From positions 108,647 to 172,646 of the forward strand of contig JAUYKM010000009.1 in assembly GCA_030699125.1 (NCBI GenBank): 64,000 nt of DNA. Direction: 5' to 3'. The notes below the pieces were generated by a model. It saw only the letters and a list, made by a program, of their open reading frames with translations. It had not been told where the DNA came from and did not search any database. Positions 5,926-61,482 of the stretch are shown here, one piece after another (positions within the stretch are counted from its first letter, which is position 1; every line of letters starts with the position of its first letter). This DNA is from Candidatus Daviesbacteria bacterium (GTDB taxonomy: Bacteria > Patescibacteriota > Microgenomatia > Daviesbacterales > UBA10151). Made by a program: the position numbers and the translations under genes.

Positions 5926-7606
5926 ATACTGGTGGCTTACGATCATTATTTTATCCATCCCTGCTTTTTGGGCGCTTTTGGTGCCAGGATTTTATGGAGC
6001 ATCCGATGATTTGCATATCGGGTGGCTCCATCAGATGGATAAAGTATTAAGGCTGGGACAAATTCCCCCCAGGTTTGTACCGGATTTAAGTTTCGGTTTT
6101 GGTTATCCATTATTTAATTTTGTTTTTCCCTTGCCATTCTATATTGCAGATATTTTTCACCGGATAGGTTTCAGCCTGGTAGACAGTATTAAAACTTTAT
6201 TTCTTTTAAGTCTGCCTATTTCAGGTATTTTCATGTACCTACTTTTGCGAGGATTTATTTCTCCAATATTAAGTATGGCAGGGGCAGTGATATACATTTA
6301 TACGCCCTACAGATCAACAGACATTTATGTCAGAGGAGCGATAGGGGAGATTGTCTCCTTTATATTTTTGCCACTGATAGTACTCTCCTTTATTAAACTA
6401 ACGGAAGATCATGAAAAATTTAATTTCTGGATAGGGATTGGAGCTCTTTCACTTGCTTCCCTAGTGTTGTCGCACAATATTACGGCCTTTATGTTTTTAC
6501 CGTATCTCTTTTTGTTAATAATTTTAAGGGTATTTTTTACCTCCGTAAATCCGACAGTTTCTATAAAGCGAATTTTTATATCAATAATTTTGGCTGTTTC
6601 CATTAGTTTATATTTTTGGCTGCCGGCAATGGTGGAGAGCAATCTTATGAAATATGACACTGTATTTGCAGTGGCAGACCATTTCCCCACTATTTTACAA
6701 CTAGTTACTCCTTATTGGGGATATGGCGCATCTGTGGCCGGTCCCTATGACGGCATGTCGTTTTTTATGGGGGTTATCAATATAGCCCTAATAATTGGGA
6801 CAATTTTAATACTGATTGCGTTTAGGAAAAAGATTGAAAAAGATTTAATGGTAATGACAATCTGGGCAATGATAGTAATATTTTCATCAATATTTATGAT
6901 GAATTATCGCTCTCTTTTTTTGTGGGAAAACTTACCCCTGTTACCATATTTTCAATTCCCCTGGAGATTTTTAGTAATGGTAACTTTAGCAACGCCAATT
7001 TCGGTGATCGTTTTATCAAAGTTTAAATATCAAAACTATTTGGCATTATCTATCATTGTTCTCTCTGTAGGTCTAAATGCAACAAGCTTTAGACCGCAAG
7101 ATTTCTTAGGAAGGGAAGATGATTATTACCTAAACCGTTATATACCTACCCCTCTTGCCAGTCAGGAGTATTTAGAAATTCAAGAGGAATATTTGAGATT
7201 GCCCAAAAATACTTATGCTAGGCCTGATAGGAATTATCCACTGGTATCTTCTGAGAGTGAAGAGATTGAGAATATAACCTTTATTGATGATTTAAAAACA
7301 GAAATTAATACGCAATCGAATGATAAATTTATTTTAACTTACAACAAGTATTATTTTCCGGGTTGGCAGGCAAGGGTAGATGGAATCTTGACAGAGATTA
7401 CACCAGGCACCCCCTTTGGTGAGATAAATATTCTGGTGGATGAAGGAGAGCATCAAATAGAGATTTTTTATCAGGAGAGCGGATTTCGGTTAATTCTGAA
7501 TTGGATTTCCTTTATTAGTTTCATTGTTACACTGTTTTTAATATTTAAAAACAGATTGCCAATACGCTTGTTTCAGATACATAATTTAACTAAAATTAGA
7601 GGATAG
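5897..7606 (+). CDS. Family-B polytopic membrane protein (GT-C-like), paralog 3 of 4. It is the most divergent of the four.
   Basis: It carries 'GASDDLHIGWLHQM', 'IPPRFVPDLSFGFGYPLFNFVFP', 'DIYVRGAIGE', 'SHN', 'WGYGASVAGP' and 'QFPWRFL'. The C-terminal domain contains 'YYFPGWQARVDG'. Confidence 0.55.
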   Translation: MERIENFLDKYWWLTIIILSIPAFWALLVPGFYGASDDLHIGWLHQMDKVLRLGQIPPRFVPDLSFGFGYPLFNFVFPLPFYIADIFHRIGFSLVDSIKTLFLLSLPISGIFMYLLLRGFISPILSMAGAVIYIYTPYRSTDIYVRGAIGEIVSFIFLPLIVLSFIKLTEDHEKFNFWIGIGALSLASLVLSHNITAFMFLPYLFLLIILRVFFTSVNPTVSIKRIFISIILAVSISLYFWLPAMVESNLMKYDTVFAVADHFPTILQLVTPYWGYGASVAGPYDGMSFFMGVINIALIIGTILILIAFRKKIEKDLMVMTIWAMIVIFSSIFMMNYRSLFLWENLPLLPYFQFPWRFLVMVTLATPISVIVLSKFKYQNYLALSIIVLSVGLNATSFRPQDFLGREDDYYLNRYIPTPLASQEYLEIQEEYLRLPKNTYARPDRNYPLVSSESEEIENITFIDDLKTEINTQSNDKFILTYNKYYFPGWQARVDGILTEITPGTPFGEINILVDEGEHQIEIFYQESGFRLILNWISFISFIVTLFLIFKNRLPIRLFQIHNLTKIRG

Positions 7607-7630: not shown

Positions 7631-9364
7631 ATGGAATTTAAACAAAAGGTTTTTAATATATTAAAAAATAATTGGCAATTTTGGGTGGGTTTTGTTTTGA
7701 CCAGCAGTCTTCTCTGGCCACTCTGCGCAGCTCCTCTATTTAGCCATCATGATGATACAACCATCATCAGGCTTTATGAGATGGATAAATGTATTAAGGA
7801 TGGTCAGATACCCTGTCGGTGGGTACCTGATTTGGGAAATTTGTATGGTTACCCTCTTTTTAATTACTATGCCCCCCTCCCCTATTATTTTGGAGAAATA
7901 TTTTACTTTTTAAGTGGCAACTTAATCTTTTCAGTCAAGATAATGTTTGTCGTCTCCTTTTTGGGAGCTTATGTTTTTATGTATCTTTTTGGAGCAAAGT
8001 TCTGGGGAAAGTTGGGCGGCAGTTTATCTGCCATTTTTTATAGTTTTGCCCCATACCACGGCCTAGATTTTTACGTTAGAGGAGCCATGGGAGAGATGTG
8101 GGCATTAATGTTTTTTCCTTTGGTTGTTTATCTACTGATCAGGCTGAAAGACAAATTGAGCATCTTAAATTCATTGCTCTTAGCTACTTCTGTTGCTTTA
8201 TTAATTACTTCTCATAACCTTTCGGCCATGATCTTTCTACCCATTGTATTTTTATTGTATCTCTTACTTTTTATAGAAAAAAAGCAAATTAAGTTTCTGT
8301 TATACGGATTTGCAGCATTTTTAATAGGTATCTTTTTATCTTCATTCTACTTACTACCTGTGCTTGTTGAAAGAGATTTGGTTCATGTTGAGACCACTAC
8401 TTATGGTTATTTTTCCTATACAGAGCATTTCAAAGGATTTAAAAAGCTATTTTTAGAAAGAGATTGGGGATATGGGGCTTCAGTTAGAGAGATACCAGGA
8501 GGGGAGAGAGATAGACTGTCTTATCAGATCGGTTGGGTCCATCTTTTAGGTTGGATTTTGGCTCTGGTTGGCGCTTATATTTTACGGAAAAAAGAAAAAA
8601 GGGTTAGCCTCATAATAATTGTTTCCTCATTTATCATTGCCCTGGCAGTTTTTATGGTCAATCCTAGATCAATATTCATTTGGCAGGCAGTAGAACCTCT
8701 AAAGTATCTGCAATTTCCTTGGAGATTTTTACTTATTATCATCTTTCTCGCCTCATTTATTAGTGGGGCAGTTTTTTTAATATTAAAGGATCAAGTTAAG
8801 CAAAAGTTGATATGGTTAATTTTAGTTATTTTGGTTGTGACATTAAATTTTTCCTATTTTCGTCCGGAAAAATTTATTCAAACTTCAGATGAAGATCTTT
8901 TAACAGGCAGCAATTGGGAGAGACAGATCAAAAGAGCCATTCTTGATTATCTTCCTAAATCAGCAAGTGAGCCACCGGCTGAATTAGCCAGGGAAAGATA
9001 TCAGCTTCTAACAGGGGATTCATTTATCTATGATTTTAAGCAAGGGTCTAATTGGTTTTCATTTAAGACTAATACTAATACACATACTATTATCAGACTC
9101 TCTCAATACTATTTTCCAAAATGGAAGATCTTTATTGACGGTAAAGAAACTCTAATCGACTATAAAAATAACAGCTTGGGCTTAATGACAATAATTTTAG
9201 GAGAAGGAAATCATATTGTGGAAGGAAGATTATATGATACTCCAATTAGAACTATCGCTAACCTTTTAACTTCAGTATCAGCTCTCATAGTAGTAATCTT
9301 CTTGCTTTTACATATTCCGATCACAAGAAGTTGGATTAAATATTATAAGGAGAGGATTGCTTGA
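7631..9364 (+). CDS. Family-B polytopic membrane protein (GT-C-like), paralog 4 of 4.
   Basis: It carries 'FSHHDDTTIIRLYEM', 'IPCRWVPDLGNLYGYPLFNYYAP', 'DFYVRGAMGE', 'SHN', 'WGYGASV' and 'QFPWRFL'. The C-terminal domain contains 'YYFPKWKIFIDGKE'. Confidence 0.6.
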   Translation: MEFKQKVFNILKNNWQFWVGFVLTSSLLWPLCAAPLFSHHDDTTIIRLYEMDKCIKDGQIPCRWVPDLGNLYGYPLFNYYAPLPYYFGEIFYFLSGNLIFSVKIMFVVSFLGAYVFMYLFGAKFWGKLGGSLSAIFYSFAPYHGLDFYVRGAMGEMWALMFFPLVVYLLIRLKDKLSILNSLLLATSVALLITSHNLSAMIFLPIVFLLYLLLFIEKKQIKFLLYGFAAFLIGIFLSSFYLLPVLVERDLVHVETTTYGYFSYTEHFKGFKKLFLERDWGYGASVREIPGGERDRLSYQIGWVHLLGWILALVGAYILRKKEKRVSLIIIVSSFIIALAVFMVNPRSIFIWQAVEPLKYLQFPWRFLLIIIFLASFISGAVFLILKDQVKQKLIWLILVILVVTLNFSYFRPEKFIQTSDEDLLTGSNWERQIKRAILDYLPKSASEPPAELARERYQLLTGDSFIYDFKQGSNWFSFKTNTNTHTIIRLSQYYFPKWKIFIDGKETLIDYKNNSLGLMTIILGEGNHIVEGRLYDTPIRTIANLLTSVSALIVVIFLLLHIPITRSWIKYYKERIA

Positions 9365-10830
9365 TGGCAGATTTTGGAGATGAAGTCACAATCGAAGTTA
9401 TTAAAAAGCGTGCCATCAAAGGGGTGGCCATTTTGGCCGGCAGAACATTTCTATTGCAGATAATTTCTTTTTTTGCTGTATTTCTATTAACCGTATTTTT
9501 AGAACCAACTCAGTTAGGGACCTTCTTTTTGGTATCAGCGGTAATTAATTTTTTTGCCTACTTTTCTGATATTGGTTTGGCAGCAGCCTTAATACAAAAG
9601 AGAGATGCCCTAACAAAAGAGGAACTTCGGACCACCTTTACTATCCAGCAAACATTAGTTTTAGGGCTGATAATTATAATCTTGGCCATCACCCCTCTTT
9701 TGAAAAGTTGGTATAATTTATCGCAAGACTCAGTTTACCTTTTATGGGCATTAGCCTTTTCCCTTTTATTATCATCCCTAAAATCTATTCCCTCGGTACT
9801 TCTTGAGCGCGAGTTACGTTTTGAAAAATTAGTTATTCCTCAGATTGTGGAAACATTAATTTTTTACACAACAGTTGTCTATATGGCCTGGCAGGGATTT
9901 GGCATTATGAGTTTTACTGCGGCAGTGTTACTGCGAGGTTTTTCCGGGCTTGTTATTATCTATCTGATCAGACCATGGCAAATAGGTTTGGCATGGTCAG
10001 TGTCAGCTACCAGAGATCTTCTACGTTTTGGATTGCCTTATCAGCTAAATTCCTTTTTGGCTGTTTTTAAGGATGATGGTTTAATTGCTCTGTTGGGAGG
10101 GATTATTGGAACGCAAGGAATTGGTTTTTTGGGATGGGCGCAAAAGTGGGCTCAATCACCTTTGCGTTTTTTTATGGATCCGGTCACTAGGGTAACTTTT
10201 CCAGCTTTTTCCAGAATGCAGCATGACAGAGAGGAATTATCAAAAGCTCTATCCAGGTCAATTTTCTTTATCTGCCTTCTAACCTTTCCATTTTTGGTTG
10301 GTCTGGTTATTCTGGCACCAAAACTAATAGAGATTATTCCCAAATATGAGAAATGGCAACCAGCCCTTTTTGCACTTGTCTTTATCAGTTTTAATTCGCT
10401 TTGGGCTTCAGTTGCCACCCCCATCACAAATTTTTTTAATGCCACAGGGAGAATCTCCATCACTTTTAAACTAATGATCATGTGGACAACTATCAGTTGG
10501 TTATTGATACCAATTCTTTCTTTTGTTTACGGAGTAAACGGTGCAGGAATAGGTTATGCCATAGTAGGTTTAACCTCGATTGTAGCTTTAGTAATTGCTT
10601 CCAAAGTAATCAAAATAGATTTTTGGGGGAGCGTTATTAAACCCTTAGCGGCAGCACTTTTAATGGGACTATTTGTGAATATTGGCGCAAATTTCCTGCC
10701 GCTGGCATTTTTTTCAGTAATAATATCAGTAATCCTGGGGGTTTCGATCTATATTATTATTCTTTATTTGCTGATAGGACAAAAAATCATCTCTGATATT
10801 AGTTTAATCCTTAAAGTTTTTAAAAGATGA
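9364..10830 (+). CDS. MOP-superfamily oligosaccharide or polysaccharide flippase (Wzx-like, Polysacc_synt type).
   Basis: It has about 12-14 TM helices. The N-terminal 'KGVAILAGRTFLLQIISFFAVFLLTVFLEPTQLGTF' is typical of polysaccharide biosynthesis (Wzx) proteins. Its ATG overlaps the upstream TGA (TGATG). Confidence 0.7.
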   Translation: MADFGDEVTIEVIKKRAIKGVAILAGRTFLLQIISFFAVFLLTVFLEPTQLGTFFLVSAVINFFAYFSDIGLAAALIQKRDALTKEELRTTFTIQQTLVLGLIIIILAITPLLKSWYNLSQDSVYLLWALAFSLLLSSLKSIPSVLLERELRFEKLVIPQIVETLIFYTTVVYMAWQGFGIMSFTAAVLLRGFSGLVIIYLIRPWQIGLAWSVSATRDLLRFGLPYQLNSFLAVFKDDGLIALLGGIIGTQGIGFLGWAQKWAQSPLRFFMDPVTRVTFPAFSRMQHDREELSKALSRSIFFICLLTFPFLVGLVILAPKLIEIIPKYEKWQPALFALVFISFNSLWASVATPITNFFNATGRISITFKLMIMWTTISWLLIPILSFVYGVNGAGIGYAIVGLTSIVALVIASKVIKIDFWGSVIKPLAAALLMGLFVNIGANFLPLAFFSVIISVILGVSIYIIILYLLIGQKIISDISLILKVFKR

Positions 10831-10845
10831 TCAAATTTTTTTATA

Positions 10846-13800
10846 ATGAAAATTATTTTCTTATCATTATTATTTTTTATATCATTTTTACTAAATCCCC
10901 AAAAGATTTTGGCCGAGTCTTCTTCATTTGTCAGTGTGGTAAATCCTGTAAGAGGAAGCGATTTTTGGGATATTGAAAACCAGGATCCTAAAACTGTAGT
11001 CCTTGGTCAAATAAATATTTTGGAAAAATATTTAATAAGACCAACTTGGTTATTAAGATTTGATGCGCTAGAAAATTTAGAACTCGTAAATCTTATTAAG
11101 GATCAACCTTCTCATGAAGTCGGTCTGTTTTTGGAAATTACCCCCTCATGGACTGATAAAGCAAATGTAGTTTACAACCAATCGGAAGATTGGCATTTTG
11201 CCAAAAGCGTACTATTGACCGGTTACGAACCTGACCAGAGAGAAAAATTAATTGATACAGCCTTTGAAAAATTTAAGGAAGTATTTGGTAAATTTCCCAC
11301 ATCAGTTGGTGCCTGGTGGATAGATGCCTATTCCCTTGATTTTATGCAGAAAAAATATGGAATAGTTTCTGCCATGATTGTGGCTGACCAATATACCACG
11401 GATAACTATCAAATTTGGGGACAGTTTTGGTCTACTCCTTATTACCCTTCCAAAAATCACGCCCTTCAACCCTCCCAAAGTATGGAAGATAAGCTACCCA
11501 TTGTAGTGGTGCAGTGGGCAGCTAGAGACCCAGTGAATGGTTATGGGAAAGGGGTAGAGGACAGTACCTTTAGTATGCAACCTAATGATTATATAGATTA
11601 TCATGACCTGAGCGCTTCCTACTTCTCCAAATTGGTTGATATTTATACCAAGCAAAAGTTTAACAAGTTTGGCCACCTGATAGTGGGATTGGAGAATACT
11701 TATAGTTGGGATAAATACTCAGATGAATATGAAAATCAAATGAGAATACTTAAAGAGAAAAGCGACAGCGGTCAATTTTCTCTGGTAACCATGAGTGGTT
11801 TTGCCAATTGGTATCAGAGCAATTTCCAAATTTCCCCGGAACAAATTATTGAAGCTTCTGATCCGTTAGGGACAAATAAAAGAGTGGTCTGGTTTATGAG
11901 CCCCTATTATCGGGCCGGTTGGTTTTTTAATCAGGATGGTTCAGTTTTTAGGGACATCCGCCAATATGTAGGAGGAAATAAGGAACTCTGTTTCGATAAA
12001 AGTTGTGAAACGGTTAATTTTGCCACTTCAGCGGTGAGGGTTTTGGATGAAGTTTCCTTTGGACATAAATGGATTATAGATGATGGTGAAATTAGTAATC
12101 TTAAAATAGAAAAGATGGATGATAAGGTAGTCTTAACTTATCTTAATCAGGCTGGAAACGATAGGGTCATTGAATTTTTACCAAGGGATATTAGTGTGGA
12201 TGGAGAAATATCCTCAATTGATACCGCTATTTTGGAAGCTACTAAGCATAATTTGGATCAAAAAAATCAGGCTCAAATTGTCAGTGGACTATTTAATTGG
12301 ACCCTGCAGTCTGTAATTTTTAAAATTTTCAAATTTACACTCTTTATATTAATTGCTTTTTTTGTACCCGGTTTTCTCATAATTCAAAAACTAAAAAGAG
12401 AAAATTCGTTTTATCAAATAACTTTTTTAGGAATTGTTTTGGGATTAAGCTTTTTTAGCTTGATTTTCTATTTTATTAGCTTAATAAATCTTAAACAATT
12501 AATTTATCTATATCTTTCTATAAATCTTATTCTCTTTATTAAAAATTTTAAGCAATTTCTAAAAATACCTGTAAATATAAATAGATTTAACCTGATAATA
12601 ATTTTTTTAATTATGGTGGGGGTTGTCTTTCAGATTATACCCACTTTCAAAAACGGTTTGACTTACTCATATGGTATGGGATTGTGGGGACCCAATACTC
12701 ATGACGGCATGTGGCATATTAGTTTAATTAACCAGTTGGTAAAACATGTTCCACCAGAAAATCCTATTTTTGGAGGAGAAATATTAAAAAATTATCACTA
12801 TTTTTATGATCTAACGATCGCTGCAACGATATATGTTACAGGTATTTCTGTCATAGATTTAATTTTTAGATTTTATCCAATTCTTTTATCATCACTTCTA
12901 GGTTTAGGCAGTTTCTATTTAATAAAGGGTTTAATTAATATTAAGGAAAATCTGCAATCCAAGTTAAGTATTATAGCCGGGCTTTATCTGGTCTATTTTT
13001 CCGGTAGTTTCGGTTGGATTGTTTCATATATTAGAGAAAAAAATTTTTCAGGTGAGTCGCACTTTTGGGCAAATCAATCAATATCTTTTAACTTAAATCC
13101 TCCTTTTGCAATTTCTTTAATCATAGTGATTGCCATACTTCAGCTTTTAGATTTAAATAAACTATCAAAACTTAAAGTTGCAGTACTTACTATTCTGATT
13201 GGTCCGCTGATTGCTTTTAAAGCTTACGCGGCAATTCTTATATTGGCAAGTTTCTTTTTGGTGGGGTTAATAAAGAAGTCGATAAATTATCTAGTTATCT
13301 TCATAGCCAGTTCAGTTTTGACTACGTTTTTATTTTTGTCTAATTTTTCCCTAAATAATAAAATAATGCTTTTTTCACCATTTTGGTTTATCCACTCCAT
13401 GATTGACTCACCAGACAGAGTTGGTTGGATCAGATTAACTCTGGCCAGGGAAGATGGTCTCACCAAAGGCAATTGGTTAAAGTTCCTCTCAGTAGAGGCT
13501 ATAAGTTTGATAATTTTTATTGTAGGAAATCTAGGAGTTAGAGTCTTTGCCCTACTCTCCCTCATTAAATTCCCATATATTGTCCGACGAGCCGATTACC
13601 TGTTTATTTTTATTTTCTCAAGCTTAGCCTTTTTTATTCCTATCCTTTTTATTCAAGCTGGAAACCCTTGGAATACAATTCAATTTTTATATTATTTTCT
13701 TTATGTTTCAGCAGTAGTAGGAGGAGTAGTTATAGCAAAAGTAGTTGTGAATTTACCTAAGATGATAGGTGTACCGATACTGCTTTTTTTCATCGCCCTA

Positions 13801-14265
13801 ACCCCTATAAATTCCTGGGCCACAGCCAATAGCTACTTAACTAATCAACCGCATGGTTTCATCAGTAATGGAGAATTGGAGGCATTAAAGTTTTTAAAGT
13901 CACAGAAGGATGGAATAGTCCTGACCTATCCATATGACGGGAGACTGAAGAATAAATTTATGGAACCGTGGCCCATCATAATATATGATAGTACCGCTTA
14001 CGTCTCCGCACTAACAGAAAAATCCGTCTACATTGAAGATGAGCAACAGAATAATATTCTTTTAACCGATTATAAAAAGAGATTGGTTGCATCCAAAGAT
14101 TTTTATGCCAATTTTAAAGAATACGGAGATAAATTTATTTCTGAAAATAATATCAAATATATCTATCTTCCCAAAATTCACAATCTAAGACTGGATGAAA
14201 ATGTTCTTAATATTTCTAATATTTTTGAGAATAAAGAGGTGGTTATTTATAAAATAAATAAATGA
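10846..14265 (+). CDS. Family-C polytopic membrane protein, 1139 aa. A signal-peptide-led, roughly 480-aa extracytoplasmic N-terminal domain is fused to a GT-C-like membrane core.
   Basis: The Sec signal peptide is 'MKIIFLSLLFFISFLLNPQKILA/ESS', followed by a long hydrophilic domain. The membrane core carries 'THDGMWHISLINQL...PPENPIFGGEILKNYHYFYDL', which is shared with genes 14262 and 41492. Confidence 0.55.
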   Translation: MKIIFLSLLFFISFLLNPQKILAESSSFVSVVNPVRGSDFWDIENQDPKTVVLGQINILEKYLIRPTWLLRFDALENLELVNLIKDQPSHEVGLFLEITPSWTDKANVVYNQSEDWHFAKSVLLTGYEPDQREKLIDTAFEKFKEVFGKFPTSVGAWWIDAYSLDFMQKKYGIVSAMIVADQYTTDNYQIWGQFWSTPYYPSKNHALQPSQSMEDKLPIVVVQWAARDPVNGYGKGVEDSTFSMQPNDYIDYHDLSASYFSKLVDIYTKQKFNKFGHLIVGLENTYSWDKYSDEYENQMRILKEKSDSGQFSLVTMSGFANWYQSNFQISPEQIIEASDPLGTNKRVVWFMSPYYRAGWFFNQDGSVFRDIRQYVGGNKELCFDKSCETVNFATSAVRVLDEVSFGHKWIIDDGEISNLKIEKMDDKVVLTYLNQAGNDRVIEFLPRDISVDGEISSIDTAILEATKHNLDQKNQAQIVSGLFNWTLQSVIFKIFKFTLFILIAFFVPGFLIIQKLKRENSFYQITFLGIVLGLSFFSLIFYFISLINLKQLIYLYLSINLILFIKNFKQFLKIPVNINRFNLIIIFLIMVGVVFQIIPTFKNGLTYSYGMGLWGPNTHDGMWHISLINQLVKHVPPENPIFGGEILKNYHYFYDLTIAATIYVTGISVIDLIFRFYPILLSSLLGLGSFYLIKGLINIKENLQSKLSIIAGLYLVYFSGSFGWIVSYIREKNFSGESHFWANQSISFNLNPPFAISLIIVIAILQLLDLNKLSKLKVAVLTILIGPLIAFKAYAAILILASFFLVGLIKKSINYLVIFIASSVLTTFLFLSNFSLNNKIMLFSPFWFIHSMIDSPDRVGWIRLTLAREDGLTKGNWLKFLSVEAISLIIFIVGNLGVRVFALLSLIKFPYIVRRADYLFIFIFSSLAFFIPILFIQAGNPWNTIQFLYYFLYVSAVVGGVVIAKVVVNLPKMIGVPILLFFIALTPINSWATANSYLTNQPHGFISNGELEALKFLKSQKDGIVLTYPYDGRLKNKFMEPWPIIIYDSTAYVSALTEKSVYIEDEQQNNILLTDYKKRLVASKDFYANFKEYGDKFISENNIKYIYLPKIHNLRLDENVLNISNIFENKEVVIYKINK

Positions 14266-16262
14266 TATATATTTTATCACAATTATTGTTGGGAATATTA
14301 TTTTTATTTGCGGCTTTCTTTACGCTGACTATGCCAGGATTATTCTTCTTAAAGAAACTTAAAATAGAATTTCAAGATTTTTGGGAAAAATTTACCATCT
14401 CCTCAGTCTTAGGATTGGTGCTATTTACGCTAACTGCTTATGTATTATCGGCAATCCATCTAAGGTTTCTAATATGGTCTTTTCCCATTCTTGGTTTTTG
14501 GTCTGTCCTTAAATTCAAGAATGATCTTAAAATTGATTTTAAACTTAAATATAAGATATTTTTCCTTTTAGTTTTAATAATCGGCATAATTGCCCAAGTT
14601 GCTGTTAATGCTCCATCAGGGGCGCCCTATCAAGATGGAATATTTTTTTGGAGCTCACATGGTCATGATGGGATATGGCATATTGCTTTAATGGAAGAGC
14701 TAAAAAAAGATATCTTTCCCTTCCAAAATCCGGAAGTAGCAGGGGAGAAGCTACAAAATTATCATTTTTTTGTCGATCTTTTAATGTCCGAATTTAGCAG
14801 GCTTTATCAATTTTCCAGTTTAGATATTTATTTTAGATTTATGCCAGTGGTATTTTCTTTACTTTTGGGACTAACTTCTTTTATATTTGTGCGGGCATGG
14901 ACAGGTAAGGAACTCGCGGGAATTTGGGCAATGATTTTCACTTTTTTTGCCGGTAGTTTTGGCTACTTACTTTATGTACCCACTCATGGTAGTTTGGGTG
15001 GTGAGGCCATTTTCTGGTTGTCACAAACACATTCAGTATTGGGAAATCCACCTCATGCAGCAGCTTTTATTATAATAACTGTTTTTCTTTTTATCCTTCT
15101 AAAATATCTGAAAAATTATCAGCTGAATTATTTTATTTTATGTGCTTTGCTGGGAGCTGTAGTAATTGAATTTAAAGTCTATGGTGGGCTTTTAATCCTG
15201 GGTGGATTATTGGTCATTGGCATTTGGGAGATAATATCTAAGAGACGCTTAAAGACAATATTGCTTTTCATGGTAACTTCAGCTGGCGCTTTTGGTATTT
15301 ATTTTCCTAACAGTCAAAATTCTCAAGGTTTTTTGATTTTTGAGCCCTGGTGGTATATTCGGACCATGGTAGTGGTACCCGACCGTCTTAACTGGATAGA
15401 TCTAGAGTTAAGGCGGCAACATTACTTGGCCCAGGGGACCTGGAATGCTTACCTTAGAGTACTTCAGCTTGAACTAACAGCTTTTTTAATTTTTCTTATA
15501 GGCAATTTAGGAATGAGGTTTTTGGGATTCTGGACTATTTTTATAATGATCAAGAATAATTTATTCAGAAATTCATTTAGTATTTTCTTTTTAGCCATTA
15601 TTATAGCCTCTTTTGTAATCCCTCATTTATTTTTGCAAAAAGGGGTGGCGTGGAACTCGATACAGTTTAATCAATATTTTATATTGTTTTTTGGCTTTTT
15701 AGCAGGAGCAGCTGTGGACTCACTTATTACCAAATTTAAATATTTATCTATTAAAATTGCTATCGCATCTTTAATAATAATTCTGGCAATTCCCACTCAA
15801 ATTGGTCTTCTTTGGCAATTCTATTCCAATGCCCCCTTGTCAAAAGTTACATATAATGAACTAGAGGGTCTTCAATTTTTAAAAAATGAAACAAAGGATC
15901 AGACAGTTATTCTGACAATGCCGTTTAATAAATATGAGAGAGACAAATATAAGGATCCTCCAATCCCGATTTATGCTTGGTTTGATACAGGTTATGTCTC
16001 TGCTTTTTCCTCCAGAAGGACTCTTATTTCGGATGAAGAACAGGTCAATATCATGGGGTATCAGCTAAATGAATTGATAGAAGAAAGAAAACTTTCATTT
16101 AGCAGCAATGATTATCATATGATGAGTAATTTTATAGATAAATTTAATATAGATTACATATATCTCTCCTGGAAACAAGAATTGGCTACCGACTCTGGCT
16201 TACTCAATCTTGATTTAATTTTTGAAAATAAAGATGCTAAAATTTTTAAAGTAAGAAGATGA
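14262..16262 (+). CDS. Family-C polytopic membrane protein, a GT-C-like paralog.
   Basis: It carries 'SHGHDGIWHIALMEEL...FPFQNPEVAGEKLQNYHFFVDL' and has multiple TM helices. Its 5' end overlaps the upstream gene by 4 nt. Confidence 0.55.
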   Translation: MIYILSQLLLGILFLFAAFFTLTMPGLFFLKKLKIEFQDFWEKFTISSVLGLVLFTLTAYVLSAIHLRFLIWSFPILGFWSVLKFKNDLKIDFKLKYKIFFLLVLIIGIIAQVAVNAPSGAPYQDGIFFWSSHGHDGIWHIALMEELKKDIFPFQNPEVAGEKLQNYHFFVDLLMSEFSRLYQFSSLDIYFRFMPVVFSLLLGLTSFIFVRAWTGKELAGIWAMIFTFFAGSFGYLLYVPTHGSLGGEAIFWLSQTHSVLGNPPHAAAFIIITVFLFILLKYLKNYQLNYFILCALLGAVVIEFKVYGGLLILGGLLVIGIWEIISKRRLKTILLFMVTSAGAFGIYFPNSQNSQGFLIFEPWWYIRTMVVVPDRLNWIDLELRRQHYLAQGTWNAYLRVLQLELTAFLIFLIGNLGMRFLGFWTIFIMIKNNLFRNSFSIFFLAIIIASFVIPHLFLQKGVAWNSIQFNQYFILFFGFLAGAAVDSLITKFKYLSIKIAIASLIIILAIPTQIGLLWQFYSNAPLSKVTYNELEGLQFLKNETKDQTVILTMPFNKYERDKYKDPPIPIYAWFDTGYVSAFSSRRTLISDEEQVNIMGYQLNELIEERKLSFSSNDYHMMSNFIDKFNIDYIYLSWKQELATDSGLLNLDLIFENKDAKIFKVRR

Positions 16263-17880: not shown

Positions 17881-19053
17881 ATGAAGCATATTCCAAAGAT
17901 AGATAAATTTTTCTTATCTTTAAATCTATTTTTAATCTCCATTCATATACTTTTTTTAGCTCTTTTGATAAAAACTCTTTACCCTATTCATTTTATGGAA
18001 GAGAATCTATTCTTTTTTGATTTATTAAGCAAACCACTCCATATCCCTTATTGGTTAATTATTATTTGTACTAATATTAATATTTTGAGCTTATCGTTTA
18101 TCGGTAAACTAATCTGGGGCAGTAGAGAATGGGTGATATTACCTGCCTTGTATGTTCTAAACCCCTGGACTCCCTATCTTGCCTCTCTTAATTCCTTTTA
18201 TATATATCTTGCCAGTTTAATTTTGATAATGATTTTGGGATTTATTTTTATTAAATCTACAAATCATTGGATAGGTGCTGTAATTTCAATCTTTGCAGGG
18301 GTTTTACTTCTCTATAGCTCGCTTATAATATTCATTATATTCCCCTTGATGGTAATTGGAATTATAATTTTAAGATTGTTTTCTAAGAATGAAATAAAAA
18401 AATTATCTTTCTGGATTATCTTATTTTGTGTACCTCTTTTTATGGCCATTTTTAAAAATTCTGTGGGATGGGAAAATATTTATAGAAACGAAGTCACTAT
18501 TTTAAGCGAAGAGGGTTTTCTAAATGATGTAAATAAATTTCAGGGGCAGGCGCAAAAAAGAGGTTTTAGGCTATTATCAAAAGTAGCCGAGAACAGGTAC
18601 GTATATTTTGCAAAATATGCTTCTTTAAAAATTATTAAAAATTTAACTCCTGCGACCTACTTTACACCTCAAGAAAAGTTGGCATCCTTTTCCTTCAGCC
18701 CGCCAATCTTTTTGGGATTTATATTGCCATTTCTTTTTGGCCTTTATTCACTGCTAAAATCCACTCAATCAGCCAAGTTTCTGGGGTTATCCTTAATTCT
18801 GATAATTCCTTCTCTATTGTCAAAACAAATAGTGGATTTAAATAGACTGGTAATTTTTTCCCCTATTATTTTTTATGCAATAAGCTATGGTCTTATCAAT
18901 CTTTATAGAAGTAAGAAATTTTCTTTTAGAATAATCCTTTTCTTGACAATTATCTTAGTATTTATTCAAATGTTTGTAACAATTTCCGATATCTATCTTA
19001 GAGAAACCATACGTTTTGATAAAACATCTGGTATAAACTTTGAAATCAAATGA
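17881..19053 (+). CDS. Truncated GT39-like paralog of 390 aa that lacks the N-terminal D-E catalytic loop.
   Basis: It aligns by eye with the middle and C-terminal TM region of the neighbouring GT39-like proteins ('SPPIFLGFILPFLFGLYSLLK...LILIIPSLL'). No D-E motif region is present. It starts 11 nt after the upstream stop. Confidence 0.4.
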   Translation: MKHIPKIDKFFLSLNLFLISIHILFLALLIKTLYPIHFMEENLFFFDLLSKPLHIPYWLIIICTNINILSLSFIGKLIWGSREWVILPALYVLNPWTPYLASLNSFYIYLASLILIMILGFIFIKSTNHWIGAVISIFAGVLLLYSSLIIFIIFPLMVIGIIILRLFSKNEIKKLSFWIILFCVPLFMAIFKNSVGWENIYRNEVTILSEEGFLNDVNKFQGQAQKRGFRLLSKVAENRYVYFAKYASLKIIKNLTPATYFTPQEKLASFSFSPPIFLGFILPFLFGLYSLLKSTQSAKFLGLSLILIIPSLLSKQIVDLNRLVIFSPIIFYAISYGLINLYRSKKFSFRIILFLTIILVFIQMFVTISDIYLRETIRFDKTSGINFEIK

Positions 19054-23156: not shown

Positions 23157-24056
23157 ATGCATCAGAAGATCTCAGTAGTAATCAATACCTATAATGAAGA
23201 AAAAAATATTGAACGGGCCATAAAAAGTGTAGCCTGGGCAGATGAAATTCTAGTTTGTGATATGCGCTCGGAAGATAATACAGTTGAAATTGCCGAAAAA
23301 ATGGGGGCTAAGGTGATATTTTGCAAAAGAGAGGATTATGTGGAACCGGTCAGAAATTTTGCAATTACCAAGGCACAGGGACCATGGATATTAATTTTAG
23401 ATGCAGATGAGGAGACCCCCCCAAGCTTAGATAATAGGTTAAAGGAAATTACAAAAAAAATGAAGGAAATGGATTATATTAGAATCCCCCGTAAGAATTT
23501 AATATTTGGTAAATGGATGAAAGCCTCAATGTGGTGGCCGGATTTGAATATTAGATTTTTCAAAAAAGGAAAAGTAGAATGGAGTGATAAAATTCATAGA
23601 CCACCAAAAGTAATAGGAGAAGGCATAGACCTGCCATTAGATGAAAAGTTTGCCATTATCCACCATCACTATGATTCAGTTTCTCAATTTTTAGAAAGAA
23701 TGATCAAATACACAAAGATTCAGGCAAAAGAATTAAAAGAAGAGGAATATAATTTTGACTGGAAAGATCTTATCAAAAAGCCTTTGGGTGAATTCTTATC
23801 AAGATTTTTTGCCAATCGGGGTTTTGAAGATGGCCTACATGGTTTAGGTCTAAGTTTACTCCAGGCTTTTTCACATCTGGTTGTTTATCTCCGAGTCTGG
23901 GAAATGGAAAAATTTGACCAAAAGGAGATCGATATCAGTGAAGCTAAATCCCTAAGAGATGAATCAGGCCGAGAAATTAATTGGTGGTTTGAACATGTTT
24001 CAAGAAGTGGTGTTAAAGGACTTTTCAAAAAAATAAAAGAAAATTTTGCTAAATAA
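23157..24056 (+). CDS. GT2-family glycosyltransferase (GT-A fold, soluble).
   Basis: It carries 'ISVVINTYNEEKNIERAIKSV...ILVCDMRSEDNTVEIAEKMGAKVI' and the DXD motif 'WILILDADEE'. Confidence 0.75.
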   Translation: MHQKISVVINTYNEEKNIERAIKSVAWADEILVCDMRSEDNTVEIAEKMGAKVIFCKREDYVEPVRNFAITKAQGPWILILDADEETPPSLDNRLKEITKKMKEMDYIRIPRKNLIFGKWMKASMWWPDLNIRFFKKGKVEWSDKIHRPPKVIGEGIDLPLDEKFAIIHHHYDSVSQFLERMIKYTKIQAKELKEEEYNFDWKDLIKKPLGEFLSRFFANRGFEDGLHGLGLSLLQAFSHLVVYLRVWEMEKFDQKEIDISEAKSLRDESGREINWWFEHVSRSGVKGLFKKIKENFAK

Positions 24057-38303: not shown

Positions 38304-39449
38304 ATGAAGAAAGATCTCTTAAAAATCATTTATATTTTTTTGACATGGAGAGTGTTATTGATACTTTTTTTATTTTTTGCTATTACATCTGTACCCCTAG
38401 GTTATAAGGATCGTTTTTTAGGGGGAGGAGCTAATCTTTACTCCCTCTCTCCGCAGCTCTTTTCATGGGCTAATTTTGACGGAGAACATTATCTCTCCAT
38501 TGCCTATATAGGTTATAGAGGTTTGGAACAAGCCTTTTTCCCGGTTTATCCTATGTTAATTTCATTTTTGAGTAAACCGTTTGTAAATGATATTTATTCA
38601 TCATTAGTATTTGGAACAGTTGTGGGAATAATTATATCCAGTGTGGCTTTCTTTTTGGCATTAATAATTTTGTGGAAGACAATCAGAATAGACTATTCTA
38701 AAAATATTGCTTTCTTAACACTGACTGCTCTTATATTGTTCCCTACCTCTTTCTATTTCGGAGCGGTTTATAGTGAGTCGATATTCCTACTTTTATCGGT
38801 ACTATCATTCTATTTTGCTAAAAGAAATAAATGGGTAATGGCATCTATTTTTGGCTTTATAGCTTCGGCCACCAGAATCTTTGGATTGCTACTTTTACCC
38901 GCACTGTTAATAGAAGCATATCAGAGGAGAATTCCTTTTAAGAAAATTGTCTGGCTTTTCATTATTCCGTTGGGCCTGGGAGTATATATGTTATATCAAA
39001 ATTTAACAGTGGGGGATCCTTTGGCTTTTTACCATCTACAAAAAATAGTAGGAGAACAACATCAGTCTGGGCTAACTATTCTGCCGCAGGTATATTTTAG
39101 ATACCTTAAAATGCTTTTAACTGTTGATATGGCGAATCCCATCTATCAGACAATTCTATTAGAATTTGTTGTGGGGATAGTATTTTTTCTGCTACCAATT
39201 TACGGATATTTCAAAAAGGTGAAACTGTCTTATCTTTTCTATGCTATGGTAGGTTTTTTACTGCCATCAATTCAGGGTAGTTTTTCATCTGTACCGCGGT
39301 ATGTAATTGTTTTCTTTCCGTCATTTTTGATTATTGCTTTATGGCTTGAAAAATTGCCTCAAGTTTTAAGATTAATTATTTTTTTAGGAATGTCAATTGC
39401 GTTATTTGTAGAAACAACTCTTTTTCTGAGAGGATATTGGGTCGCATGA
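38304..39449 (+). CDS. Polytopic membrane protein, a PIG-V (GPI mannosyltransferase 2, GT76)-like GT-C candidate.
   Basis: 'SWANFDGEHYLSIAYIGYRGLEQAFFPVYPML' resembles the WDaeHfl...GY..E...AFFP signature of the Mannosyl_trans2 family. It has about 9-10 TM helices. Confidence 0.45.
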   Translation: MKKDLLKIIYIFLTWRVLLILFLFFAITSVPLGYKDRFLGGGANLYSLSPQLFSWANFDGEHYLSIAYIGYRGLEQAFFPVYPMLISFLSKPFVNDIYSSLVFGTVVGIIISSVAFFLALIILWKTIRIDYSKNIAFLTLTALILFPTSFYFGAVYSESIFLLLSVLSFYFAKRNKWVMASIFGFIASATRIFGLLLLPALLIEAYQRRIPFKKIVWLFIIPLGLGVYMLYQNLTVGDPLAFYHLQKIVGEQHQSGLTILPQVYFRYLKMLLTVDMANPIYQTILLEFVVGIVFFLLPIYGYFKKVKLSYLFYAMVGFLLPSIQGSFSSVPRYVIVFFPSFLIIALWLEKLPQVLRLIIFLGMSIALFVETTLFLRGYWVA

Positions 39450-40699
39450 AAAGATATATCAAAGAATTAATCACACATCCGTTATTTTCTGGAAGTGCCA
39501 TTATGGTGATTGGAAGCAATGCCATAAACGTTCTCAACTATTTATACCATTTACTCATGGGAAGAATGTTGGGACCTTCCTTTTATGGAGAATTGGCTGC
39601 CCTTATCTCTTTCATGGGTCTTTTGGCGGTCATCCCCTCCTCTCTTAGCTTAGTAATTATCAAGTATGTTTCTGCCGCAAAAAATAAAAAAGAAACGGCC
39701 AGTTTAATAAAATGGCTACAAGCAAGAGGTATCAAAGTGTCAATGATTATGTTTGGTTTTACCTTAATCATATCTCCCATAATTGCCAACTTTTTACATA
39801 TAGGTAAGATTAGTTACTTAATATTAATTGCTGTATCATTTTTATTTTCCATTCAAACTTTAATTAATAGATCAATTCTTCAGGGATTATTAAAGTTTAA
39901 AGAGACAGTGTTGACTATTCTTTCAGAATCAATTGTTAAATTAGCCAGCAGTATGGTGTTAATATTTATCGGGTTTCGAGTAGGCGGAGCTATGTTGGCT
40001 TTAGCAATCTCTGTATTCCTAGGATGGTATATGACAACGGTTTATCTGAAAGGTAGTTTGCAGGGTCAAGGAGAATACTCTCCCAATATTAAAAAGATGC
40101 TGATGTTTAGTATTCCCGTTATATTACAATCATTGGCTACATCCTCCATTTATTCGTCAGATGTACTTTTAGTTAAACACTTTTTTACATCACACGACGC
40201 TGGGATTTATGCTTCCCTTTCAACTTTAGGAAAAATTATTTTTTTTGGGGCTGCGCCAATTGGGTCAGTAATGTTCCCACTTGTTTCCAAAAGACAATCT
40301 CAGGGACAGGATTATAGAAAAATATTTATCTATAGTTTATTGGGTACATCGCTTTTAGCAAGTGGAGTATTGTTAATATATTGGTTATTTCCAGAGCTTG
40401 CTGTCAGCTTACTTTATGGTTCTGCGTATTTAGAGGCTACTAGTCTATTAATTTGGTTTGGAATTTTTATCACTCTTTTTACACTATCATTTCTAATTAT
40501 TAATTATGGGCTTTCGTTGGGTAGAACTTCAGTTGTTATTTTTCCCCTGATTGCTGCCTTTTTACAAATTATAATGATTTGGTTTTATCATCAAACTCTA
40601 CTTGAGGTAATAATTATTTCTCTAGTAATCTCTGCTTTACTACTAGTAAGTTTGATTATATACTCTCTTTATGATTCGGGAGGCTCAAAAAAGAACTAG
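39437..40699 (+). CDS. MOP-superfamily oligosaccharide flippase (Wzx-like).
   Basis: It has 12-14 TM helices. 'GSNAINVLNYLYHLLMGRMLGPSFYGELAALISFMGL' is typical of the polysaccharide biosynthesis / flippase family. Confidence 0.65.
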   Translation: MGRMKRYIKELITHPLFSGSAIMVIGSNAINVLNYLYHLLMGRMLGPSFYGELAALISFMGLLAVIPSSLSLVIIKYVSAAKNKKETASLIKWLQARGIKVSMIMFGFTLIISPIIANFLHIGKISYLILIAVSFLFSIQTLINRSILQGLLKFKETVLTILSESIVKLASSMVLIFIGFRVGGAMLALAISVFLGWYMTTVYLKGSLQGQGEYSPNIKKMLMFSIPVILQSLATSSIYSSDVLLVKHFFTSHDAGIYASLSTLGKIIFFGAAPIGSVMFPLVSKRQSQGQDYRKIFIYSLLGTSLLASGVLLIYWLFPELAVSLLYGSAYLEATSLLIWFGIFITLFTLSFLIINYGLSLGRTSVVIFPLIAAFLQIIMIWFYHQTLLEVIIISLVISALLLVSLIIYSLYDSGGSKKN

Positions 40700-41495
40700 C
40701 CTGATTTCCATAATAGTTCCGGCTTTTAATCAGGAAAAAACCATAGTTCATGATTTAAAAAAAATACATCAAGTTCTTGAGAAACTAAGATATAGCTCTG
40801 AACTTATTTGTGTGGTTGACGGCATGTTGGATAGAACCTTTGAGAAAGCCACCAAGTTTGCCAAAGAATCCCCCCGTATTAAGGTAGTGGGATACGAGAA
40901 AAATAAGGGTAAGGGTTATGCCATACGTTATGGCATAGCGGAAAGTAAGGGGGATATTGTGGGCTTTATAGATGCGGGGATGGATTTAAATCCAAATGGA
41001 TTATCGATGCTTCTTGAGCATTTTGAATGGTACAATGCCGATATTATTGTTGGTTCTAAAAGACACCCTGTTTCTAAGGTGATTTATCCTTGGCAAAGAA
41101 GAGTCCTTTCGCTTGGCTATCAAATTTTAGTAAGATTATTGTTTGGTCTTCGGGTAAGAGACACACAGGTGGGAATGAAATTTTTTAGAAGAGGAGTATT
41201 AAAAAAAGTTTTGCCAAGATTGTTGGTAAAAGAATATGCTTTTGATGTAGAGATGTTGGCCGTTTCCAAATACTTGGGGTTTAATCGAATTTTCGAGGCA
41301 CCTGTAGATATCAAGTTGAGATTTGGGGGAGCATCTACCATTACCAGTCAAAAATTCTTAAGAACAGTCTTGGCTATGTTTTGGGATACTTTGGCAGTAT
41401 TTTATAGGTTGAAAATTCTGAGATACTATTCCGACAAAAATAAGAGAAGATGGAAATTTGACCCGGAGTTAAATTTCAGAATAAATATCGGATGA
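40671..41495 (+). CDS. GT2 polyprenyl-phosphate sugar synthase (Dpm1/GtrB-like; dolichyl or undecaprenyl-phosphate hexosyltransferase).
   Basis: It carries 'ISIIVPAFNQEKTI', 'VVDGMLDRTFEKA', 'EKNKGKGYAIRYG' and 'FIDAGMDLNP' (DXD), plus a C-terminal 'RFGGAS' region. Its 3' end overlaps the downstream GT-C-like gene by 4 nt. Confidence 0.7.
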   Translation: MIREAQKRTSLISIIVPAFNQEKTIVHDLKKIHQVLEKLRYSSELICVVDGMLDRTFEKATKFAKESPRIKVVGYEKNKGKGYAIRYGIAESKGDIVGFIDAGMDLNPNGLSMLLEHFEWYNADIIVGSKRHPVSKVIYPWQRRVLSLGYQILVRLLFGLRVRDTQVGMKFFRRGVLKKVLPRLLVKEYAFDVEMLAVSKYLGFNRIFEAPVDIKLRFGGASTITSQKFLRTVLAMFWDTLAVFYRLKILRYYSDKNKRRWKFDPELNFRINIG

Positions 41496-43387
41496 TTTTA
41501 TTTGACTACATACGTTTCCTTGTATTTTGCTTTCTGATAATTATTCCAGTGGGCGAATTAGTCTTAAGAGTAATAGGTTTTAGGGGCAAGTTTTGGGAGA
41601 CTCTTTTAATAACAACAAATATTGGTTTTATTTTTACTACTCTGGTCGTCTATATTGCGGGTTTAATAGGAATAAATAATATTCTTCCGGCATTAATCCT
41701 ATTACCCTTTTTTCACCTATTAATATTTAGATCTAATTTTTTTGTTAAATTGGTAAGTAAAAAGATAAGTTTAGACATTGTTCTTTTAATTATTATTGCT
41801 GCTGTTGTCATACTACAGGGAGCCCTTAATTTTTATTCAGGCGAAATTCTTCCAGAGGGTATTAGGCTAACAGCAGGACATGCTCATGACAGTTTATGGC
41901 ACATAAGTCTAATAAATAATCTCAAAATACAAATACCTCCGGAAAACCCAATTTATTCAGGGACTTTATTAACTAATTATCATTATTTCACTGATATTTT
42001 TATGGCTTTTGTTTCAAATTTTACGAGTATATCAACTCTTGGCATTTATTTTAAGATAATGGGACCATTTCTGCTTATACTATTTAGCGGTTCGGTTTTT
42101 CTTCTTTCTCTAAGATTGACTGCCAATAAGATTCTCTCCTACATGGCAATTCTTTTAACTGTTCTGAGCAGTAATCTATATTATTTAATAGGAATATTTT
42201 ATGAAAATGCCAAAATTACCCCTTCTGTATTTTGGGTGGATGAATTTGCTACTAGGATGACCAATTTACAGCTTTTGGCATCCTATATAGTCATACTCAC
42301 TGTTCTATACCTAATGCTTATTTTCAGAGAAAAATTTTATATGAAAATCACATTAATCTTATCAATTATCATCTCCTCCCTTTTAGGATTCAAAGCATAC
42401 GGTTTCATACTTATTATGCTATCGTTACTAATTCTTTTTATCTATAGAAGAAGCTTTAATTATTTAAAGCTTAGTTTAGCAAGTATTTTTTTCTCACTTA
42501 TTATTTATAAAAATAGTATCTCTTCAAGCAACTTCCCTTTCATTTTTATGCCCTTTTGGTTTATCAAAAATATGTTTGAGACTGGAGATCATCTAAATTA
42601 CTCAATATGGGAATTAAAAAGACAAACCTATCTTCAGGATAATAACTTTCTTCGTATAGGTACCCTTTACATTGAAGGAATTATAGTTTTTCTTTTAGGA
42701 AATTTAGGAGGAAAAATAGCGGGTTTTTTAACTATATTTCAAAAATATCAAAAAGATAAAATTGATATAATCATAATTCTGACATTGGTATCCGTTTTTG
42801 GAACTTTAATTCCCTGTATCTTTCTCCAAAAGGGAATAGTTTGGAATACCATTCAATTTTTTTATTATTCCTACCTTTCGCTTTCTCTGCTTTTCACACT
42901 TTTTATCTCAAGATTATTGTTAAGAGCAAAACTTATCACATTAATAATTCTCGCCTTTATTTGGGGAACCTTGCTTCCTGGTGTTTTCTATACTTTAGAT
43001 TTATATTCCCCAAATAAATCTTCTATCCAAAACCGCTCAGCTTTAATTGATGCATCTTTTTTTCTTAAGAATCAAGATAAAGGTAATGTTGTGGTAGACC
43101 CTTTATATTATCAGGATTCATTGATTCCGGCTTTATCAGGACAATCAGTATTTATGGCAGATTCAACCCAATTGAATCTCTTGCTTATAAATGATGATGA
43201 TCGGGATAGAGATCTAAGGAATTTTTTTGATGACAAGCTAGAAGAAAATAAATTTAATTTTCTTGAAAATAACAATATTAGATATATAATTTCCAATGAG
43301 GGCAGAATTTTTTTGGATAAAATAATGCAATTAAAAAAAGTTTATTCTAATTCAGAAATTAGTATTTACAAAAATATTTCTAAATAA
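41492..43387 (+). CDS. Family-C polytopic membrane protein (GT-C-like paralog), immediately downstream of a GtrB-like GT2.
   Basis: It carries 'TAGHAHDSLWHISLINNLKIQIPPENPIYSGTLLTNYHYFTDIF' and has multiple TM helices. Confidence 0.55.
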   Translation: MILFDYIRFLVFCFLIIIPVGELVLRVIGFRGKFWETLLITTNIGFIFTTLVVYIAGLIGINNILPALILLPFFHLLIFRSNFFVKLVSKKISLDIVLLIIIAAVVILQGALNFYSGEILPEGIRLTAGHAHDSLWHISLINNLKIQIPPENPIYSGTLLTNYHYFTDIFMAFVSNFTSISTLGIYFKIMGPFLLILFSGSVFLLSLRLTANKILSYMAILLTVLSSNLYYLIGIFYENAKITPSVFWVDEFATRMTNLQLLASYIVILTVLYLMLIFREKFYMKITLILSIIISSLLGFKAYGFILIMLSLLILFIYRRSFNYLKLSLASIFFSLIIYKNSISSSNFPFIFMPFWFIKNMFETGDHLNYSIWELKRQTYLQDNNFLRIGTLYIEGIIVFLLGNLGGKIAGFLTIFQKYQKDKIDIIIILTLVSVFGTLIPCIFLQKGIVWNTIQFFYYSYLSLSLLFTLFISRLLLRAKLITLIILAFIWGTLLPGVFYTLDLYSPNKSSIQNRSALIDASFFLKNQDKGNVVVDPLYYQDSLIPALSGQSVFMADSTQLNLLLINDDDRDRDLRNFFDDKLEENKFNFLENNNIRYIISNEGRIFLDKIMQLKKVYSNSEISIYKNISK

Positions 43388-61466: not shown

Positions 61467-61482
61467 TAATATAAAATTCAGC

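Follow-up and report, generated by a model that had tools for sequence, protein, structure and literature searches.

What do three large, unannotated membrane proteins do in a locus filled with glycan-assembly genes, and why does one of them carry a secreted domain at its N-terminus? The question arises from a 64,000-nucleotide stretch of a Candidatus Daviesbacteria genome (assembly GCA_030699125.1, contig JAUYKM010000009.1, positions 108,647 to 172,646, forward strand), hereafter the window, in which the genes beginning at positions 10846, 14262 and 41492 encode related polytopic proteins. The G+C content of the window is 33%, and its nearest relatives are metagenome-assembled genomes (MAGs) of Candidatus Daviesbacteria. 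We consider it likely (probability about 0.7) that the three genes encode lipid-linked-sugar-dependent extracytoplasmic glycosyltransferases of a new sequence family with the GT-C(A) fold. From the fold, topology, conservation and synteny described below we infer activity, donor and acceptor. Genes are designated by their start positions.

A gene family with a common motif block

The three genes and the block that they share are as follows, with lengths and positions in amino acids (aa).

10846..14265 (+), family member 1 gene, 1139 aa: signal peptide, DUF3863-like domain, four transmembrane (TM) helices before the extracytoplasmic loop EL1, GT-C core, C-terminal globular domain (from the list of open reading frames (ORFs) and domain hidden Markov model (HMM) matches)
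14262..16262 (+), family member 2 gene, 666 aa, the modelled protein: 14 TM helices, N-terminus and C-terminus outside, accessory TM helices aa 2-89, core aa 98-522, C-domain aa 524-664
41492..43387 (+), family member 3 gene, 631 aa: core aa 96-505, C-domain aa 513-627
12700..12810 (+), motif block of 10846 (HDGMWHISL...PPENP...NYHYFYD, in EL1), aa 619-655; D620 is the equivalent of the invariant D136 of 14262
14664..14777 (+), EL1 motif block of 14262, aa 135-172; D136 lies at the N-terminus of EL1 helix 1, and EL1 helix 2 starts shortly after Y167/H168
41885..41995 (+), EL1 motif block of 41492, aa 132-168

A preliminary description of this DNA had noticed the block HD(G/S)xWHI(S/A)L...P(P/F)xNPxxxGxxLxNYH(Y/F)FxD in all three genes. 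It is indeed present in each of them, among the invariant columns of their alignment; WHI(S/A)L and P(P/F)xNP are separated by 8-9 residues, not by about 15 as had been stated. Pairwise identity of the paralogs is 27-33% across a common region of approximately 630 aa, and the family TM-core HMM matches exactly three proteins of the window (E 1e-124 to 1e-159). By these sequence comparisons the similarity among 10846, 14262 and 41492 is far above chance. The first two genes overlap by 4 nt (ATGA; 10846-14265 and 14262-16262), and the third likewise overlaps its upstream neighbor by 4 nt (40671-41495 and 41492-43387).

None of the three proteins has a Pfam-A or NCBIfam match above threshold. The Pfam scan yielded neither STT3 nor another GT-C model even at E <= 1, and a core profile built from the three paralogs found nothing among the PDB sequences at E <= 10. 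The 120 close homologues listed are all unnamed or “hypothetical” and carry no precomputed Pfam domain. An exhaustive HMMER search of 1.84 billion cluster representatives with the family profile returned 2,106 proteins at E <= 1e-3, of which 982 reach E <= 1e-30, the size of about 2,100 being a count of clusters at 50% identity. As judged by these searches, the family is large and without existing annotation in Pfam, NCBIfam or PDB sequences. The literature searched on DUF3863, 3LM3, GT-C enzymes in the Candidate Phyla Radiation (CPR) or Microgenomates, and oligosaccharyltransferases (OSTs) in Patescibacteria contained nothing relevant.

A scan of the GTDB species representatives confirmed 271 stretches, of which 78 loci were kept; these are mutually syntenic and are titled Daviesbacteria, Woesebacteria, Blackburnbacteria, Microgenomates, Patescibacteria or generic MAG. 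Among members with readable taxonomy, the family was seen here only in Microgenomates-type CPR bacteria. Many of the GTDB loci bear titles such as “uncultured Gammaproteobacteria,” “Bathyarchaeia archaeon” or “Clostridia bacterium,” yet they share synteny with the loci of Daviesbacteria and Woesebacteria, and their identity to the query is 36-66%; we think that these titles are placeholders or mislabels.

Fold and topology of the membrane core

The membrane proteins had been described as GT-C-like and uncharacterized, and both terms are supported. The AlphaFold2 model of 14262, made from a 21-sequence alignment, has a predicted local distance difference test (pLDDT) score of 88.7 and a predicted TM-score (pTM) of 0.91, and its polytopic core superposes on solved GT-C structures. 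Foldseek places AglB first (E 1.1e-9), then DPY19, STT3, PglB, ArnT and AftA, all strong matches being GT-C transferases. No transporter scores better than E 0.07 or above a probability of 0.14, and a transporter family, which had been named as the assignment that would overturn the GT-C description, was ruled out on this basis.

The model comprises 14 TM helices, three accessory (2-32, 40-64, 68-89) and 11 belonging to the core. The canonical GT-C TM1 corresponds to helix 98-116. After it comes the long extracytoplasmic loop EL1 (aa 117-185), which contains a conserved acidic residue (D136) and a pair of short helices (134-147 and 170-182), as is typical of GT-C(A). Since the topology puts EL1 right after TM1, on the outside, the motif block corresponds to EL1. 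A manual count gives about 21 Lys and Arg residues in the short predicted cytoplasmic loops of 14262, and because these residues concentrate there, the positive-inside rule places both termini outside. The three accessory helices ahead of the core put the N-terminus outside, and the AglB-like globular domain after the core lies outside as well. Many family representatives, 550-575 aa in length, start at TM1 and lack the accessory helices. The corresponding parts of 10846 are the following.

12304..12576 (+), three accessory N-terminal TM helices ahead of the canonical GT-C TM1, aligning to helices 2-32, 40-64 and 68-89 of 14262 (from the paralog alignment, the AlphaFold2 helices of 14262 and hydropathy)
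12592..13839 (+), GT-C transmembrane core, aa 583-998 (family TM-core HMM, E 7e-139)
13843..14253 (+), C-terminal extracytoplasmic globular domain, aa 1000-1136

Profile comparison leads to the same class of enzymes. Aligned by hhalign with nine PMT_2-type paralogs of the window, the family scores 95.2% probability (E 2.7e-8, 380 columns), family residues 101-551 corresponding to PMT_2 positions 13-442, including the TM1/EL1 region. Control comparisons of the family with the PTPS_related paralogs and with YfhO give only 1-2% probability, so the link to PMT_2 is not an artefact of hydrophobic composition.

Across 153 diverse members D136, Y167, H168, K305 and Q468 (14262 numbering) are conserved at 100%; G120, N262, P362, G414 and N415 at 99%; and W364, Q459, N465 and H140 at 96-97%. 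Position 419 is always R or K. The key residue of the motif is its conserved Asp (D136) and not the preceding His (H135), which is conserved in less than 85% of members. According to the predicted topology the conserved polar residues all lie on the outer side, except for the cluster G414-N415-x-G417-x-R419 inside the long TM8. GT-C enzymes carry a catalytic or metal-binding Asp at the N-terminus of EL1 helix 1, and because D136 stands at the equivalent place it would, by analogy, have this role. Y167, H168, N262, K305, R/K419, Q459, N465 and Q468 may line a pocket for the lipid phosphate and the sugar.

The motif region resembles parts of YfhO and of a PTPS_related protein locally. At 14700-14777 the family sequence FPFQNPEVAGEKLQNYH aligns locally with WPLWNPYSFAGTPFLATYH of YfhO (20671-23100 (-)) and GYPLFNYYAPLPYY of a PTPS_related protein (7631-9364), and “QNP..G..L.NYH” resembles WNPYSFAGTPFLATYH of YfhO; hhalign gives both comparisons a probability of 1-2%, and the likeness to YfhO is a lead only. 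Such likeness of short motifs may reflect a shared ancient EL1 motif or chance.

The N-terminal domain of 10846

Ahead of its membrane part, 10846 carries two further features.

10846..10914 (+), predicted Sec signal peptide, aa 1-23, MKIIFLSLLFFISFLLNPQKILA with cleavage before E (judged by eye from the sequence; homologues show the n-h-c pattern and AxA-type sites)
10915..12285 (+), extracytoplasmic N-domain, aa 24-480: remotely homologous to DUF3863, made up of a (beta/alpha)7 barrel and a beta-sandwich

The N-terminus, MKIIFLSLLFFISFLLNPQKILA followed by ESSS, resembles a Sec signal peptide on visual inspection, and the N-termini of homologues are signal-like in the same way. Of 37 fused forms, 29 have an even number of TM helices (2 or 4) between the N-domain and EL1 according to a crude hydropathy predictor, which is consistent with an extracytoplasmic N-domain, since that location requires an even number; the odd counts in the remaining forms are attributed to merged or missed helices. 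The signal-like N-terminus, the even counts and the fit to the positive-inside rule together bear out the outside location first proposed for this domain, and nothing predicts it to be cytoplasmic.

Sequence searches with the isolated domain gave little. The Pfam/NCBIfam scan returned nothing above threshold, and the single sequence against PDB sequences returned noise only (azurin, E 0.19). The family profile of the N-domain, in contrast to the single sequence, matches the sequence of 3lm3 (E 2.9e-6). Homologues of the domain score 14.5-16.8 bits with Pfam DUF3863, below the cut-off of 27; the N-domain of the window itself has no match. An AlphaFold2 model of aa 24-485 (41 sequences) reaches a pLDDT of 92.5 and has the fold of 3lm3. 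DUF3863 (Pfam PF12979; PDB 3lm3, BDI_3119 of Parabacteroides distasonis) is itself without known function. The relative described here shares 18% identity with it, falls below the Pfam gathering threshold, and differs in being fused to a GT-C core or to a TM helix and C-domain.

R36, D73, E91, E97, W116, D160, Q182, D186, Y188, D248 and E283 are invariant or near-invariant in the N-domain and lie mostly at or just past the C-terminal ends of the barrel strands in the model. (The peptide VGAWWIDAYSLDFMQKKYG, by which the domain had first been described, begins at aa 154.) We read these residues as a putative sugar-binding, possibly hydrolase-type, site. The earlier suggestion of a hydrolase-like or carbohydrate-binding domain is supported; the predicted enzyme-like barrel has conserved carboxylates and aromatics. 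Membership of the CE4/NodB deacetylases, including ArnD, was considered and rejected: the Asp-His-His triad is absent, and no His of the N-domain is conserved above 63%. We regard it as quite unlikely that the N-domain is a CE4/ArnD-like deacetylase or deformylase which, coupled as ArnD is to ArnT, edits either the glycan or the lipid-linked donor ahead of transfer or following it.

The fusion had seemed a singular arrangement, which it is not. N-domains are fused in 35 of the top 150 family representatives, namely in all 35 that exceed 800 aa, and extracytoplasmic add-on domains were already known for GT-C enzymes. Two classes of fused form occur, one with 4 and one with 2 TM helices separating the N-domain from EL1. 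Among 120 N-domain homologues, 65 have no polytopic core: a signal peptide and the N-domain are followed by a single TM helix and the C-terminal globular domain that the GT-C family also has. Since these proteins carry both domains in the absence of the core, the module of N- and C-domain exists independently of the transferase. A single ORF of 1639 aa (protein P0265, L079 1868-6787) fuses a Wzx flippase, the DUF3863-like domain and the GT-C core, its Wzx part being 56% identical to 9361 of the window. This fusion is known from one Logan contig only, and it is weak evidence: the two genes of the window share a reading frame, with 15 nt between them, and losing one stop codon could produce it.

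Neighboring genes and the proposed function

The context of the family genes is defined by three neighbors.

9361..10830 (+), Wzx/MOP-type flippase gene, immediately upstream of 10846 (Pfam Polysacc_synt_3, E 8.6e-53)
39437..40699 (+), second Wzx/MOP-type flippase gene, context partner of 41492 (Pfam Polysacc_synt_3, E 2.8e-20)
40671..41495 (+), GT2 resembling polyprenyl-monophosphate-sugar synthases, overlapping 41492 by 4 nt (best PDB match DPMS 5mlz, E 1.7e-15, aa 11-228, then GtrB 5ekp and ArnC)

Each sub-locus of the window thus starts with Wzx, 9361 preceding 10846 and 14262, and 39437 preceding 40671 and 41492. Of the 78 related loci, 36 have a Wzx homologue; as a rule it stands immediately ahead of the family gene, often overlapping it. 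The N-domain-fused gene is present in 31 GTDB loci, most of them ordered PTPS_related, Wzx, N-domain plus family gene, family gene, PMT_2 and onward. In distant genomes the order is Wzx, family gene (a 10846-type core with or without the N-domain), three GT2 genes, GT4 and YfhO, and the Wzx and family ORFs often overlap.

The series 39437-40671-41492 combines a flippase, a DPMS-like synthase and a GT-C protein. Besides CsbB/GtcA/YfhO, three-component systems of extracytoplasmic glycosylation comprise GtrA/GtrB/Gtr*, AglD/AglR/AglS and ORF12-15 of C. youngae with GT136; 39437, 40671 and 41492 are the same three parts in one operon, an arrangement found for 41492 only. Both a MATE-family flippase within a three-component system and a GT-C enzyme bearing an appended extracytoplasmic domain are documented, and extra extracytoplasmic domains are known from Emb, AftD and the GT136 protein ORF12 (PMC11127046). 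AglD/AglR/AglS of Haloferax volcanii provides a precedent in which AglR acts in the delivery of Dol-P-Man across the membrane (PMC3871713). The present GT-C proteins differ from these in belonging to another sequence family, and 10846 and 14262 in having no adjacent synthase. The add-on of the known three-component GT-C enzyme has a carbohydrate-binding module (CBM) fold, whereas that of 10846 is N-terminal, secreted by a signal peptide and enzyme-like in fold. With the mycobacterial arabinofuranosyltransferases AftA, AftB, AftD and Emb the family has no sequence relationship, and the extra domains of Aft and Emb are C-terminal CBMs.

PMT_2/ArnT-type enzymes (Pfam PF13231), which we take to be CAZy GT39/GT83, differ from the family in the C-domain and in lacking its additional N-terminal helices, and the family remains below every Pfam threshold. 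The likeness to STT3/AglB/PglB (CAZy GT66) includes the fold of the AglB-type C-terminal extracytoplasmic domain. Sequence similarity is undetectable (no Pfam STT3 match), identity in structural alignments being 10-16%. The family lacks WWDYG; the only W-x-D-x-G-like stretch of the C-domain, chosen by sequence (aa 573-578 of 14262), reads (Y/W)-x-(S/T/D)-T-(A/S/G)-Y in the 153 members, with the full consensus (Y/W)-x-(S/T/D)-T-(A/S)-Y-V-S-A-(F/L)-S. STT3/AglB/PglB have 13 TM helices, DXD motifs and a TIXE/SVSE motif in EL5; the family has 11 helices in the core plus the three extra N-terminal ones with the N-terminus outside, and its EL1 has a single invariant Asp. Despite the AglB-type C-domain, membership of the OSTs fails because WWDYG is not conserved and there is no Pfam STT3 signal.

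We propose that a polyprenyl-phosphate-linked sugar would be made in the cytoplasm and moved to the outer face by the Wzx/MOP flippase encoded nearby, where the family enzyme would pass it on to an acceptor at the surface, which may be a glycan of the cell envelope or a glycoprotein. The secreted DUF3863-like barrel and beta-sandwich of 10846 would bind or trim the same acceptor glycan as the GT-C core acts upon. For 41492 we favor a monophosphate-linked single sugar as donor, by analogy, because 39437-40671-41492 is a module of flippase, DPMS-like synthase and GT-C. In the case of 10846 and 14262 the donor may be a P-sugar or a PP-oligosaccharide, both being candidates.

Several points weigh against this proposal. 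D136 lies about 11 residues downstream of the aligned “DE” motif of PMT_2, an invariant position there that is not conserved in the family, and its catalytic assignment is thus by analogy. Next to 10846 and 14262 there is a flippase only and no dedicated synthase, and no priming phosphoglycosyl transferase was found, either by Pfam in the window or among the minimal modules' unlabelled ORFs; the ORF in the gap is a further GT2. The conserved pair of GT2s downstream (23157-24056 and 24060-24866) look soluble and GT-A-like, with best matches to GmaR, a flagellin glycosyltransferase, and SunS, a peptide S-glycosyltransferase, and not to lipid-P-sugar synthases; distant genomes have a third GT2 between the homologues of 23157 and 24060, whose N-terminus (“LNWNG”) has a WbbL-like look. 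Finally, the N-domain could be a non-catalytic pseudoenzyme.

Some of these points agree with an en bloc transferase or ligase of OST type, which, in the manner of PglB and AglB, would move a whole undecaprenyl-pyrophosphate (Und-PP)-linked oligosaccharide, flipped by the adjacent Wzx, onto a protein or cell-wall acceptor, using another acceptor-recognition motif. This is a serious rival for the Wzx-coupled 10846-type proteins, possible though in our opinion doubtful. The best structural matches are STT3B, AglB and PglB, and the deeply conserved module of Wzx, family gene, GT2, GT2(-GT2) and GT4, with its non-synthase-like GT2s, resembles a cluster for assembly of a lipid-linked oligosaccharide; moreover, the classical substrates of Wzx/Polysacc_synt_3 flippases are PP-linked units. 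However, WWDYG is replaced by (Y/W)x(S/T/D)T(A/S)YVSA, STT3 is not matched at E <= 1, the TM helices of the core number 11, not 13, a priming transferase is missing from the window and the minimal modules, and 41492 is preceded by a DPMS-like synthase. Over ALG12 and PMT the Z advantage is modest, part of it coming from the extra C-domain. An extension of the OST-type idea, which we consider unlikely, is that these are CPR-specific en bloc transferases or ligases in which a new motif replaces WWDYG, attaching Wzx-flipped Und-PP-oligosaccharides to surface proteins or the cell wall, while the fused DUF3863-type hydrolase-like domain cuts or prepares the acceptor glycan (“cut-and-paste” envelope remodelling).

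The position next to Wzx would also suit a Wzy-type polymerase or a WaaL-type ligase (GT-C(B)/SEDS-like) as the partner of the flippase, and no Wzy_C or O-antigen ligase match to Pfam was found anywhere in the window; the core does not have the GT-C(B) fold, and we judge this very improbable. That the proteins are no enzymes at all, namely transporters or structural membrane proteins in which the motif is a binding site, is hardly credible in view of the Foldseek ranking given above and of the GT-C-like arrangement in which invariant acidic and basic residues occupy the outer face. The proposal of lipid-linked-sugar-dependent glycosyltransferases is accordingly the one that we retain.

The remainder of the region is of similar content. 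Positions 1-52109 hold approximately 50 kb of glycan-assembly genes, nearly all on the plus strand: about 12 PMT_2, 3-4 PTPS_related, YfhO (-), GT87/PIG-M-like and PIG-V-like GT-Cs, two Wzx flippases, about 8 GT2, 4 GT4, and the nucleotide-sugar enzymes (epimerases and UDP-glucose dehydrogenase). ORFs without a Pfam match are 5897-7606, 17881-19053, 45618-47990, 55260-57068 (-), 61435-63384, 75-1013 and 48744-49775. The first is 34% identical to the PTPS_related paralogs and occurs in 23 of the 78 related loci, and 17881-19053 in 11. These ORFs may be further unannotated membrane components of glycosylation.

The advance is incremental, a real addition to a known enzyme class whose diversity and accessory domains were already well known. 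CPR bacteria are uncultured, and their envelopes are essentially uncharacterized. About 50 kb of the window is devoted to some 20 GT-C enzymes, and the new family is a large part of that machinery. With a GT-C fold, a likely catalytic loop and a link to Wzx, three “hypothetical proteins” become testable glycosyltransferases, and if activity were shown they would probably be the founding members of a new CAZy GT family. The recurrent DUF3863-like fusion, together with the stand-alone proteins of N-domain, one TM helix and C-domain, offers a functional lead for a DUF of known crystal structure; if the “cut-and-paste” reading were true, it would give DUF3863 its first function.

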